DNA of 14,661 nt from a virus: the IMG/VR virus record IMGVR_UViG_3300027985_000432, one strand, 5' to 3'. The first letter of the stretch is position 1; the number at the start of each line of letters is the position of its first letter. Made by a program: the position numbers and the translations under genes. Below are positions 4,374 to 14,554 of the stretch, one piece after another. Below the pieces are notes generated by a model. It saw only the letters and a program-made list of their open reading frames with translations. It was not told the origin of the DNA and did not search any database.

Positions 4374-4402
4374 ATTATAACAAAAAAAGAGAAAAAAATC
4401 AA
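4374..4402 (-). promoter_or_regulatory. sigma70-type promoter TTGATT-N17-TGTTATAAT (extended -10) for the 4348 cassette
   Basis: Minus-strand read: TTGATTTTTTTCTCTTTTTTTGTTATAAT. The -35 is at 4397-4402, the -10 at 4374-4379, with an exact 17-nt spacer. It is immediately preceded by the terminator of the upstream gene. Confidence 0.6.
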
Positions 4403-4417
4403 ACTATAAAAAGAAAA

Positions 4418-4437
4418 AGAGAGTTAAATAACTCTCT
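4418..4437 (-). terminator. rho-independent terminator after gene 4439..5005
   Basis: Minus-strand read: AGAGAGTTATTTAACTCTCT followed by TTTTCTTTTTAT. It has an 8-bp stem and overlaps the stop codon. Confidence 0.55.
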
Positions 4438-4438
4438 T

Positions 4439-5005
4439 TTAAGCTTCGGGTTCGTCTAGTTGAATTGTCCAAGGATTGTTTAAAGACCAATTATAATCTA
4501 AATCTGCATTATGGATATATAATGTAGATACCATAAGATTCATACTAGATTCGACTGAAAGATCCACTGTAGTTGTTCCAGATACCCATCCGCTACCTTC
4601 TCCATCTAAATATATTCCCATAATTGGACTAGTTCCTAGTAGAGTCGGTGCATCTTCACGAGTAAATTCTACAACTAACGCTGTTTTATCAACTATCGGC
4701 GCACTAGCAGTAAAAACGATTACTTGATTTTCATCGTCGATGTCAACCTCTCCTTCAATCCCTTGGAAACCAAATGATAGAATTTCTGGCTTCATGGGAA
4801 TCGCTGCGGGTACTACTACAACCTCATTCCATACATGACCAACTTGTGGAATTAAAGTTTGTTCTTCAGTTGTTGGCGTAATCTCTAATGAATCTTCAAT
4901 TACATCTGCTTCTACAACACTATTGACTAATGTCTCAACAACGGCTTGGTTTAATTGAGAATTATTTCTTAACCACTGAAATAATTCTTGTTTAGGTGTA
5001 GCCAT
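4439..5005 (-). CDS. hypothetical acidic protein, 188 aa
   Basis: ORF-track entry. SD TAGGAGGAATTCTT precedes the ATG. It is followed by a terminator hairpin overlapping the stop. No sigma70-consensus promoter is seen upstream. Confidence 0.55.
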   Translation of the reverse strand: MATPKQELFQWLRNNSQLNQAVVETLVNSVVEADVIEDSLEITPTTEEQTLIPQVGHVWNEVVVVPAAIPMKPEILSFGFQGIEGEVDIDDENQVIVFTASAPIVDKTALVVEFTREDAPTLLGTSPIMGIYLDGEGSGWVSGTTTVDLSVESSMNLMVSTLYIHNADLDYNWSLNNPWTIQLDEPEA

Positions 5006-5070
5006 AAGAATTCCTCCTATTTAATTTGTCAATTAAAAGTAGGGTTTCTTTCCCAATTCTCTATAAAAAA

Positions 5071-5092
5071 ATAGCAGAATAAATCTGCTATT
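5071..5092 (-). terminator. rho-independent terminator after the small-peptide genes
   Basis: Minus-strand read: ATAGCAGATTTATTCTGCTAT followed by TTTTTTTATAG. Confidence 0.5.
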
Positions 5093-5175
5093 ACGAATAT
5101 CGGTAATGATTATCGTCGTCATGAAGCGCGACTAGTAAACAAATAATTAAAACAACCCAGTACACGACTCCTCCT

Positions 5176-5310
5176 TTAGGAGATAAGACTAGCTAGGGCA
5201 TAAATACCGATTCCACCAACCACACCTAGTGCAGGCATACCACCCTCTAAGTAAATATTCCACACGAAATCTTCAATTCGTCCTTTGATTTTACTAATAA
5301 TAGCTTTCAT
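5176..5310 (-). CDS. small membrane peptide, 44 aa (MKAIISKIKGRIEDFVWNIYLEGGMPALGVVGGIGIYALASLIS)
   Basis: Hand-translated, below the ORF-track cutoff. Strong SD AAGAAGGAGAATAAA ATG. Its own consensus promoter lies just upstream. The C-terminus is Gly-rich and hydrophobic. Confidence 0.4.
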   Translation of the reverse strand: MKAIISKIKGRIEDFVWNIYLEGGMPALGVVGGIGIYALASLIS

Positions 5311-5340
5311 TTTATTCTCCTTCTTTCATTTTATATTTAT

Positions 5341-5369
5341 ATTATACTATAAAATTCTCTAAAAGTCAA
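5341..5369 (-). promoter_or_regulatory. sigma70-type promoter TTGACT-N17-TATAAT for the 44-aa peptide gene
   Basis: Minus-strand read: TTGACTTTTAGAGAATTTTATAGTATAAT. The -35 element (5364-5369) overlaps the last codons and stop of 5359..5982. Confidence 0.55.
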
Positions 5370-12537: not shown

Positions 12538-12823
12538 TTACTATCTCCTTCCTTAATCCAAATTTAATTACCTTCATCAGTACATCGTTCAATACTTTTT
12601 CTGCTTGTAGATTCTTTTCTTTGGTGAAGCTTAACATATTTGGGGCTTTCGCTCTCATTTCGTCAATCCAGACCATATACTCTTTCGACATTATTCTTGC
12701 ATCTTCCAAAGAGTATTCATTCCGTTTTGCTTTCATCATGATTGTGCGCGCAGTTTCACCAATGTCAGTTAAACAGTCAGCAAAAGGAACGCCACACAAG
12801 TATTTATCCATAAAGAAAGCCAT
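12491..12823 (-). CDS. hypothetical protein, 110 aa
   Basis: ORF-track entry. No SD at the first ATG. It ends with TAG. It overlaps the lipoprotein gene start by about 47 nt. Confidence 0.45.
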   Translation of the reverse strand: MAFFMDKYLCGVPFADCLTDIGETARTIMMKAKRNEYSLEDARIMSKEYMVWIDEMRAKAPNMLSFTKEKNLQAEKVLNDVLMKVIKFGLRKEIVSEENSLYVAGMPTTV

Positions 12824-12851
12824 TCTTATAATATGATGGAGTTGCTTACCA

Positions 12852-13343
12852 TCATATCCCCCATTTTTCGATCTTCCACAGAATTGTAGGATATGGATGC
12901 TCTAAAGCCTTCATCTTTTCCATCGCCATACCAGCCATACAATTGATTGCTTTAGGCATCTCCATCCGAGCAATCTCTTCTGCAAACATTCGTAGATAAG
13001 AGAACTCTTCCATGTAATCTGGATGCGCAATGAAGTATGGTGTGAATAAGATTTCCAGAAAATTAATATTCTGCTTCTTAAAACACTCAAACATCAATCG
13101 AATATCTTTAACATCTGCATGTTCGTTATTCTCCATAACGTGGGTTAAACTAACAGGTTTCTTATTAAGAACGATGGATTCTAATGAAGGAATAACGATA
13201 GCTTTACTATCAATATCACTTCCTTCGTAGGCTAATCCATAGTTTTGGCTTCCTTGTAAAGCAACGAAAACAGGGTTATGACCAACTTCTCTTACGGCAT
13301 CCATATGTTCTTGTAATCTTTTCATCATCACTTCTTTATCCAT
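12852..13343 (-). CDS. minimal Pol-beta-superfamily nucleotidyltransferase, about 163 aa (GS...D.D motif)
   Basis: FVALQGSQNYGLAYEGSDIDSKAIV is the hG[GS]x(9-13)DhD nucleotidyltransferase signature. The pattern recalls the 'predicted nucleotidyltransferase' family of YcgL-like proteins (GS.aYG....SD.D). ORF-track 12852..13373. The better start is the MDKEVMM Met at 13341-13343, which has AAAGGAG 5 nt upstream. Confidence 0.6.
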   Translation of the reverse strand: MDKEVMMKRLQEHMDAVREVGHNPVFVALQGSQNYGLAYEGSDIDSKAIVIPSLESIVLNKKPVSLTHVMENNEHADVKDIRLMFECFKKQNINFLEILFTPYFIAHPDYMEEFSYLRMFAEEIARMEMPKAINCMAGMAMEKMKALEHPYPTILWKIEKWGI

Positions 13344-13357
13344 GTTCTCTCCTTTCT

Positions 13358-13888
13358 TTACTTTAGGAACCATTTTACCCCATAAGAAGATTTCCCAGTA
13401 GCTAATGACTTAGCAATCTGCCCTCTAACAGATTTTAAATCAAATTCTTTTCCACTTGTATTAAGAATTTTGTGCGCAGCCGCATCCAAATTCTTAAACT
13501 CACAACAAACAACTCGATTCGTTTGTGCTTCAATACTCTGTTGGGATTCTGTCTTTATAGCATCCCTTTGTGCACGCTTCTGATTTTCTTCGCAAGTTAC
13601 CCACTCAAGATTATATAAAGAGTTGTCGCGCTTATTGTGATTATTATGATCTACCGTCATCTCTTCCGCATTTGGAATAGGTCTCCAAGTAAGCATTACG
13701 AGACGATGAGCAGATTTAATTCCATATGGTGTTTTAATATATAAATATCCATTGGATACTAAAAACGCCATATTCTTTTTATGTTCGTCTCGAAAGTTTC
13801 CGAGAGTAGAAACATAAACACGGAATTCTCTGTTAAATTTCCATTTCTCCAATCTCAGGCTCAAGGTAGGTAACATCATAAGTTCCAT
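13358..13888 (-). CDS. HNH homing endonuclease (NUMOD4-like N-motif plus an HNH_3-type catalytic motif)
   Basis: EKWKFNREFRVYVSTLGNFRD is the NUMOD4-like module of phage homing endonucleases. AHRLVMLTW...VDHNNHNKRDNSLYNLEWVTCEEN is an HNH_3-type motif. Confidence 0.75.
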   Translation of the reverse strand: MELMMLPTLSLRLEKWKFNREFRVYVSTLGNFRDEHKKNMAFLVSNGYLYIKTPYGIKSAHRLVMLTWRPIPNAEEMTVDHNNHNKRDNSLYNLEWVTCEENQKRAQRDAIKTESQQSIEAQTNRVVCCEFKNLDAAAHKILNTSGKEFDLKSVRGQIAKSLATGKSSYGVKWFLK

Positions 13889-13899
13889 AATCCTTTCTT

Positions 13900-14202
13900 T
13901 TATTCTTCAATTGACGATTTCAATCTCCCAAAGGCATTTGGAAATGCGGCTTCATATTCTGGATGCACATCTTCTTCTTTGATGATGTATATTGAATTTG
14001 CCGTTTTCACCAAAATTACTCCCTGTTCTAAAATTAAATTTTGAACAGATGAAGTAGTTACAGAGGCCCCATCTTCAAATCTTGGATTTCCAAATACTTC
14101 TCCTTGAAAATGTGTCGTCCCGAGTTCTGGAGCCTGATAAGGATTTGCTGGAGGTCTTTTAGTAAGGCTCCAATTTTTTAATATAGGATAATCTAATTTC
14201 AT
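13900..14202 (-). CDS. hypothetical protein, 100 aa
   Basis: ORF-track entry. SD AAGGAGAGAAAA precedes the ATG. No family recognised. Confidence 0.5.
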   Translation of the reverse strand: MKLDYPILKNWSLTKRPPANPYQAPELGTTHFQGEVFGNPRFEDGASVTTSSVQNLILEQGVILVKTANSIYIIKEEDVHPEYEAAFPNAFGRLKSSIEE

Positions 14203-14212
14203 TTTTCTCTCC

Positions 14213-14494
14213 TTATAGTTGCATAGTTCTGACTAATATTCCAGTAACAACACCATCCCAAATCCAAGAACAAGTGACTGCTTTAATTGTAACACCGGGA
14301 TTTTCAAAACAGTCTACTTTATCAATAAAGTATTCGTGTGGCGCCAATCCGCAAGCTTCTAAAGCTTCTGACAGAGACTCTTCTAAAAGATATTCATCCT
14401 CTGTCTGTTCATTATATACATAATATTTTGTTTCACCCTGACTGCCTTTAAAAAAGTCTAAGACTTTCTGTACTTCTTCTGCTGGCTTACTCAT
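14213..14494 (-). CDS. hypothetical acidic protein, 93 aa
   Basis: ORF-track entry. It is the first gene after a consensus promoter. SD AAGAAGGAGTATTAAT ATG. Confidence 0.5.
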   Translation of the reverse strand: MSKPAEEVQKVLDFFKGSQGETKYYVYNEQTEDEYLLEESLSEALEACGLAPHEYFIDKVDCFENPGVTIKAVTCSWIWDGVVTGILVRTMQL

Positions 14495-14525
14495 ATTAAT
14501 ACTCCTTCTTTCATCTTATATATAT

Positions 14526-14554
14526 ATTATATCAGAAAAATAGATAAAAATCAA
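14526..14554 (-). promoter_or_regulatory. sigma70-type promoter TTGATT-N17-TGATATAAT (extended -10) for the cassette starting at 14494
   Basis: Minus-strand read: TTGATTTTTATCTATTTTTCTGATATAAT. The -35 is at 14549-14554, the -10 at 14526-14531. Confidence 0.6.

Follow-up and report, generated by a model that had tools for sequence, protein, structure and literature searches.

The sequence analysed here, hereafter the window, is a 14,661-nt stretch of DNA of an uncultured gut phage with a G+C content of 38% (IMG/VR record IMGVR_UViG_3300027985_000432), and all its plausible genes, like all window features described below, lie on the minus strand. Six promoter-like sites, numbered P1 to P6, divide these genes into cassettes, one of which consists solely of a gene for a protein resembling the major vault protein (MVP). 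We propose, with a probability of roughly 0.7, that these sites are promoters read by the housekeeping sigma factor of the host, that they belong to a stereotyped family present in large (about 100-240 kb) uncultured phages of the gut and rumen, and that most of them are fused to a terminator, insulating one cassette from the next. The anatomy of these modules, their departure from chance and their conservation were read directly from the window and from the contigs of related phages.

Promoter sites in the window

The pattern TTGAYT-N17-TATAMT has six exact matches in the window, all on the minus (coding) strand, for a chance expectation of 0.03, and none of 200 shuffled sequences reaches six. 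A first-pass annotation had announced six near-consensus promoters with 17-nt spacers, four of them with an extended -10 element, and these counts stand: the spacer measures 17 nt in 6/6 promoters, and TGn precedes the -10 hexamer in P1, P3, P4, and P6 but is absent from P2 and P5. Their hexamers agree with the housekeeping consensus at 10-11 of the 12 positions, and in a general sigma-70 scan of both strands they are all found within ten sites scoring 10-11/12. The distance from each promoter down to the start codon is 25-46 nt, and each start is provided with an AAGGAG-type ribosome-binding site.

The promoter family of related phages

Homologues of the MVP-like protein were found on 30 IMG/VR contigs of up to 240 kb (44-63% identity), and 68 further ones in metagenomes, many of them from ruminant gut samples; the relatives that carry this gene are gut and rumen phage contigs of 100-240 kb. 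About half of the MVP-homologue loci repeat the strict pattern on the gene strand, in strikingly uniform sequences such as TTGATTtttataaaaaaatattaTATAATatatatagaaaat. The family promoter is a stereotyped element of about 45 nt, TTGATT-TTTataAAAAAATATga-TATAAT-ATATATAgAAAA. In a family matrix made from 41 distinct sites/contexts of 30 related loci, T is near-invariant at spacer positions 1-3 and A at positions 7-12, followed by TAT, and the start region ATATATAgAAAA is conserved as well. Upstream of position -9, the matrix holds less than 0.2 bit per position, this region being filled by hairpins of variable sequence. The family matrix shows no UP element, that is a conserved A/T-rich block at about -40 to -60, and the description of the T-tracts before the -35 as UP-element-like is accordingly not supported.

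The weight-matrix scan suggested by the first-pass annotation was run on the relatives, since no further genome of this phage was found. The matrix trained on the relatives only recovers P1 to P6 as the top six sites of the window: P1 (TTGATT-17-TGtTATAAT, 4374..4402) with 22.1 bits, P2 (TTGACT-17-TATAAT, 5341..5369) with 21.5, P3 (TTGATT-17-TGaTATAAT, 6010..6038) with 54.5, P4 (TTGACT-17-TGtTATACT, 8517..8545) with 44.9, P5 (TTGACT-17-TATAAT, without TGn, 11853..11881) with 40.3 and P6 (TTGATT-17-TGaTATAAT, 14526..14554) with 33.1, the next-best window site reaching 6.5 bits and the shuffle maximum 7.7. The positions outside the hexamers, taken alone, still give 34, 32, 23, 13, 4.5, and 1.8 bits against a background of -43 +/- 13, with P3 and P4 highest and P3 nearest of the six to the family consensus. 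Because a matrix built without the window picks P1 to P6 so far above background, the window promoters are degenerate members of the clade-wide family, and exactly six in number.

Within a single genome, near-identical modules recur every 1-3 kb, and on a 176-kb contig the family sites extend over at least 70 kb, with up to eight per 8 kb, in front of open reading frames (ORFs) of about 100 aa. Larger genes found downstream in the relatives encode a Ro/TROVE-like RNA-binding protein, a peptidase, a NinI-like phosphatase and RlaP, and none is structural. In two related loci, perfect promoters (L129 at 5986, 6990, and 7241 on the minus strand; L111 at 3758 and 4849) have, over the next 200 nt, no ORF that reaches 40 aa and possesses a ribosome-binding site; these may drive very small peptides or non-coding RNAs. 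A subclade of human-gut contigs of about 107-148 kb (L167, L170, L181, L183) shows TTGACA and the spacer ATAAAAAATTTTTTTGA, in which an A-run comes before a T-run, the reverse of the main family.

Terminator-like hairpins

Six minus-strand hairpins followed by a U-rich tract are predicted to resemble intrinsic terminators, and five of them lie upstream of promoters, with folding free energies (dG) of -10.6 to -17.1 kcal/mol. The claim that every promoter is fused to the preceding terminator holds directly for P3, P4, and P5 only, where the hairpin abuts the -35 (gap 0). The hairpin before P3, GAAAGAGAGCTTCGGCTCTCTTTT, lies at 6039..6062 (dG -17.1), and those before P4 (8551..8570, dG -10.6) and P5 (11882..11908, dG -12.1) are followed by a T-run that passes straight into the -35. 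On the contrary, the gap amounts to 7 nt at P1, when counted from the end of the extended minimum free energy stem (the core, 4415..4440, dG -12.5, ends 12 nt before the -35), and to 21 nt at P6, whose hairpin AAAAGGCTATTAACTTAGCCTTTT is located at 14576..14599 (dG -10.9). Folding of the sequence upstream of P2, a promoter placed within the 3' end of ORF 5359..5982, gave no hairpin, and the T-tract reported before every -35 is replaced there by an A-run. The sixth hairpin (5070..5092, from the sequence scan) closes the P2 unit and is followed by no family-type promoter.

Across the family, 46 distinct sites were folded, and at 28 of these a hairpin with dG of -8 or lower ends at most 8 nt from the -35 (gap 0 in 16 cases), compared to 15% of random positions; the fusion of hairpin and promoter is a family trait. 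In many copies, the U-rich tract after the stem is itself made of the -35 hexamer and the spacer T-run, for instance ...CCTCTCT directly followed by TTGATTTTTAT.

From this anatomy we infer termination, polymerase specificity, promoter strength and timing as follows. The U-tract of the upstream hairpin would extend over the T-rich -35 (TTGAYT) and the first TTT of the spacer; incoming transcription would be halted at this hairpin and T-run, and a fresh RNA polymerase would begin about 35 nt downstream, making each cassette an insulated unit, individually and strongly expressed. Expression early in infection by the unmodified host polymerase is most likely, because the cargo is of an accessory or anti-host kind (RecBCD inhibitor, RNA-repair set, MVP-like protein). 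Promoter anatomy and cargo together suggest that promoters of host RNA polymerase type drive accessory and anti-host phage genes, and to this extent support the first-pass annotation, which had seen host-polymerase promoters typical of phage early or host-takeover regions. Such promoters alone do not, however, prove a narrow role in host takeover, since Staphylococcus Kayvirus vB_SauM-515A1 drives most of its genome from dozens of host-type early promoters (PMC7698491).

Spacer palindrome and alternative explanations

A perfect 12-bp palindrome, TTTTAATTAAAA, is found twice, at 6022-6033 in P3 and at 8529-8540 in P4, directly after the -35 and in the same register, as had been noticed initially. 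The supposed truncated copy upstream of gene 4439..5005 was not significant, as the stretch 5026-5038 shares only the 8-mer TTTTAATT, which is found at five other places in the window. The pair itself is weakly unusual, 13 of 200 shuffles giving two or more matches to the 12-mer when one mismatch is allowed. The spacers of P3 and P4 have 14 of 17 bases in common, the closest pair of the six, and both promoters flank the MVP cassette; they would share the palindrome because they are near-duplicate modules on either side of this cassette.

The palindrome had been taken for the operator of a repressor, and in a wider form this explanation would have the whole T-run/A-run spacer bound, between -35 and -10, by a phage-encoded dimeric protein that shuts the genes off later in infection. 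The perfect dyad in the same register at P3 and P4 and a spacer conservation over diverged phages far above that of usual sigma70 spacers would fit such a role, as would the perfect A/T palindromes of at least 12 bp seen in about half of the relatives' sites, marginally above the null given by the column frequencies (0.52 vs. 0.36, p = 0.04). Operators between the hexamers are known from lac-type synthetic designs and from the p4 sites of phi29, where p4 binds CTTTTT-N15-AAAATG repeats at early promoters, and P3 and P4 resemble them by their A/T-rich dyad; they differ in that the dyad of the window is not conserved, gives no sign of symmetric covariation and has no recognisable cognate regulator among the window ORFs. 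Indeed, the exact dyad is limited to 2/6 window promoters, both near-duplicates, and neither TTTTAATTAAAA nor TTTAATTAAA was found at any of 82 distinct orthologous or paralogous promoter sites of the relatives, whose spacers instead carry T-run/A-run variants such as TTTTTATAAAAA. In the relatives, the longest perfect palindrome averages 9.8 bp, without excess over the 9.35 bp of sequences sampled from the column frequencies (p = 0.23); the centre of symmetry wanders across four positions, and the symmetry is lost through single substitutions that leave the two runs in place. On 55 viral contigs that do have an exact palindromic promoter, the 79 co-resident promoters follow TTTnnnnAAAwtTnTGn, and only 14 of them contain a palindrome of at least 10 bp. 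The order of the two runs is reversed in the human-gut subclade, and the ORFs of the window, which covers 14.7 kb of the genome, gave no match to a helix-turn-helix or any other DNA-binding domain. Bacillus phage vB_BcoS-136 further presents eight TTGACA/T-N17-TATAAT promoters in 25 kb, in which the right half of the spacer (xAAAAAtAATGr) is conserved and the T-run is absent, and the TAAAATTATGT of P4 closely matches this right half. An operator is thus unlikely and unsupported, because the exact dyad is absent from the relatives, palindromy is explained by composition, and Bacillus phage promoters without any T-run have the right half too. The palindrome is rather a chance variant of the family's T-run/A-run spacer, in which two separately conserved promoter features stand side by side, its left half being the T-run found after the -35 of almost every family member and its right half the conserved A-run with a TRTG-type -16 region.

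Some observations weigh against the proposal of host-read, terminator-fused early promoters and leave room for other causes of the conservation. TTGATT agrees with TTGACA at only 4/6 positions; the spacer T-run is retained at hairpin-less sites too, so that its overlap with the terminator cannot fully account for it; spacer and start region are very highly conserved among phages whose MVP-like proteins are only 44-63% identical, which is beyond ordinary sigma70 promoters; and the PNK-HD gene has an in-frame TAG which, taken with a relative that may recode TAG (see below), would fit late rather than early translation if the recoding is real. Intrinsic optimisation of the promoter, a role as recombination linker or a binding factor are possible causes of this conservation. 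It is possible, though somewhat doubtful, that the modules (about 45-70 bp) are conserved mainly as homology linkers by which cassettes are moved within or between co-infecting phages, with promoter and terminator activities carried along, a role that is compatible with the preferred explanation. The recurrence of near-identical modules along a genome fits this role, and so does the highly variable gene order around MVP, where the gene often stays a promoter-flanked single-gene cassette; in a distant pair of relatives (L002/L008), the homology of one cassette starts 3 nt upstream of the -35, and promoter-early stem-loops (PeSLs) have been described in exactly this role (PMC2839356, PMC4122927). 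However, in two close pairs (L015/L017 and L012/L018) the breakpoints of insertion or replacement lie about 145 and 460 nt from the nearest module. The conservation could also reflect an extra binding factor. If a phage-modified polymerase or a phage factor were needed to read the spacer and start region, the promoters would be middle rather than immediate-early; the additional information in these regions and the spread of the motif over at least 70 kb of the 176-kb contig, instead of one takeover region, go in this direction, but hexamers, 17-nt spacing and TGn already compose a complete housekeeping-type promoter, and in the staphylococcal Kayvirus 81% of the genes are served by 58 host-dependent promoters of this kind (PMC7698491), making such a dependence quite improbable. 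More speculatively, and with rather little probability, the spacer and the ATATATAgAAAA region, kept in phages whose proteins share only about 45-60% identity, may be read by something other than sigma, either a clade-specific phage protein that switches the cassettes jointly off or on, or a recombination system that takes the modules as portable linkers and swaps anti-defence cassettes between co-infecting gut phages.

Comparison with known phage systems

The closest described system is the PeSL of T4-type phages, a composite of sigma70 early promoter and stem-loop whose conservation extends over about 100 bp; it is frequent between orphan genes, and a role in modular shuffling has been proposed for it (Arbiol et al., 2010, PMC2839356; Comeau et al., 2014, PMC4122927). 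Like PeSLs, the modules of the window are intergenic composite motifs that join an early-type sigma70 promoter to a stem-loop and end at a ribosome-binding site and start codon; both recur densely between small genes that are orphan or non-essential, show conservation far outside the hexamers and, in the window probably, insulate the cassettes transcriptionally. A stem-loop upstream of the -35 defines one of the five PeSL subclasses (PMC2839356, PMC4122927), whereas in the clade studied here the stem-loop almost always stands just upstream of the -35, with an overlapping U-tract. PeSLs belong to T4-like myoviruses of Gram-negative hosts and have polyG/polyC stems, whereas the present motif, with its T-run/A-run spacer and AT-only start region, is found in uncultured gut and rumen phages, probably of Firmicutes. 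PeSL-style breakpoints at the modules received no support from the two close pairs of relatives mentioned above. The modules are thus an analogue of PeSLs and not members of that group, since no nucleotide match to a cultured phage was obtained and the nearest protein homologues occur in Bacillus siphoviruses, not in T4-like myoviruses.

Early sigma70/sigmaA promoters are also known from the host-takeover module of SPO1. This module, the Kayvirus and vB_BcoS-136 are all similar to the window by their many copies of TTGACW-17-TRTGnTATAAT read by host polymerase. Such promoters at times have a terminator directly before them: in vB_BcoS-136, a terminator at locus 24818-24837 is followed by a promoter at 24844, and the downstream half of the spacer contains the A-run and TRTG. 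Compared to these large Firmicutes phages, the studied clade is distinguished by TTGATT, by TTT after the -35 and by a fixed start region, which results in a near-invariant motif of about 45 nt, the window copies being more degenerate. Early promoters of T4, a subject of Liebig and Rueger in 1989, are information-rich beyond the host consensus and are thought to out-compete host promoters for the unmodified polymerase. Most of what they add to this consensus lies on the upstream side, as A-rich UP-like blocks and a -35 of GTTTAC type, whereas the clade studied here shows no conservation upstream of -9 and has its surplus of information in the spacer and start region.

These comparisons leave current understanding intact, the main point being an unusually information-rich promoter common to a whole clade. 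The modules map the probable transcription units of a clade of large phages from gut and rumen that is still uncultured, and the signature of about 45 nt finds such phages, as well as their mis-binned genomes, in metagenomes. They mark the genes that are probably expressed first, namely those for the MVP-like protein, the RNA-repair enzymes and the RecBCD inhibitor, and would extend an insulated-cassette architecture of PeSL type from T4-like phages to probable Firmicutes phages. They might also be useful as compact terminator-promoter parts.

Cassettes and gene content

The P6 cassette (14494..11893) contains two ORFans, an HNH endonuclease, a split RlaP-type nucleotidyltransferase and a lipoprotein-like ORF. 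In the P5 cassette (11819..8569), the first gene (11556-11819) belongs to the T7 gp5.9 RecBCD-inhibitor family (PF25708, 7e-12, above the curated cut-off) and is accompanied by an RNA ligase (phrog_968, 2e-57) and six small ORFs. A candidate internal promoter for this ligase, TTCACA-16-TATATT at 11235-11208, was rejected, being weak, of a non-family type and with a leader of only about 10 nt. The MVP-like gene (6065..8470, 801 aa; MVP_shoulder 1.2e-22, Vault_3 5e-11) stands alone in the P4 cassette, which extends from P4 to the terminator at 6062-6039. According to ORF reading, P3 is followed by a 207-aa ORF without assigned family (5982..5359). The P2 unit (5100-5310) seems to encode only a 44-aa membrane peptide (5310..5176) whose tail is hydrophobic and, probably, a 24-aa hydrophobic peptide with a GTG start and a strong ribosome-binding site. 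The P1 cassette is a long operon that continues to the left end of the window and includes cREC_REC, an HD phosphohydrolase, PNK-HD and small ORFs. At 1219-1772, two neighbouring small ORFs (79 and 104 aa) are paralogous to one another (family F63).

That each cassette begins with a promoter, as had been stated, is not strictly true of the 188-aa ORF 4439..5005, which matches no family, has no homologue in the related loci and lies between two terminators without a sigma70-type promoter of its own. It may be expressed by read-through of the terminator or from a different, perhaps late, type of promoter. A TTGACA at 5026-5031 was discarded as its promoter, the box 17 nt downstream being TCTTAT and overlapping the start codon. 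Many window ORFs match no family, and Rfam and tRNA scans of the window found nothing; from the families assigned, the cargo appears to be an island of RNA repair and anti-defence rather than a structural module.

Relatives and probable host

Megablast of the whole window against cultured phages gave no match, and the nearest cultured homologues of the RNA ligase, about 49% identical, are those of Bacillus siphoviruses of 160-169 kb. Exact-protein look-ups retrieved the same phage only as three short contigs, all of sample SRR7216773 and without difference from the window, and an exact 38-mer was absent from metagenome contigs; the closest relatives in viral and metagenome collections do not exceed 63% MVP identity. 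The MVP-like gene of about 800 aa (window 6065-8470; L002-L031, L151-L218) is widespread in large gut and rumen phage contigs and nearly always stands beside RNA-repair genes (RNA ligase, PNK-HD, RlaP, cREC), the Ro/TROVE-like gene being elsewhere in the genome.

An exact 27-nt consensus was located in 61 stretches of metagenome-assembled bins, several of which are contigs of 139-176 kb that resemble whole phage genomes. Bins with the family promoter are mostly Clostridia or Bacilli, plus scattered other phyla, as expected of mis-binned phage DNA, for which the host signal given by binning is unreliable. The Gram-positive-like host of the first-pass annotation, more precisely a Firmicutes-type host, is thus weakly supported, because the nearest cultured RNA ligases are those of Bacillus phages and because of the Clostridia and Bacilli bins.

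Reading-frame breaks and possible TAG recoding

The PNK-HD gene (1910-2812) contains an in-frame TAG at 2752-2754, directly past the P-loop (GKSTV*REYEKQ), and homologues align on either side of it; this would be either the nonsense codon of a pseudogene or a case of amber recoding or suppression. On a contig identical to the window, the public gene call for 9321-9815 (L001 2091-2585) passes a TAG at 9627-9629 to give a product of 164 aa; the standard code yields two ORFs of 74 and 98 aa, the second with its own ribosome-binding site. In a 239-kb relative (L025), the MVP gene, which starts just upstream of locus position 6001, has a TAG where a Gln is conserved in all other MVP homologues (MNDNI*KDLVLS vs. 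MSDNVQKDLVLS). When stop-codon recoding was sought across the MVP genes of the relatives, only isolated cases appeared, the other MVP genes having no in-frame TAG. The TAG of L025 gives a hint of TAG-to-Gln recoding in part of the clade. Finally, the RlaP-type nucleotidyltransferase (12491-13373), a single ORF of about 270 aa in the relatives, is split by a frameshift into ORFs of 173 and 110 aa; as the junction lies within a CCCCCATTTTT run, either an error of sequencing or a genuine frameshift could be the cause.

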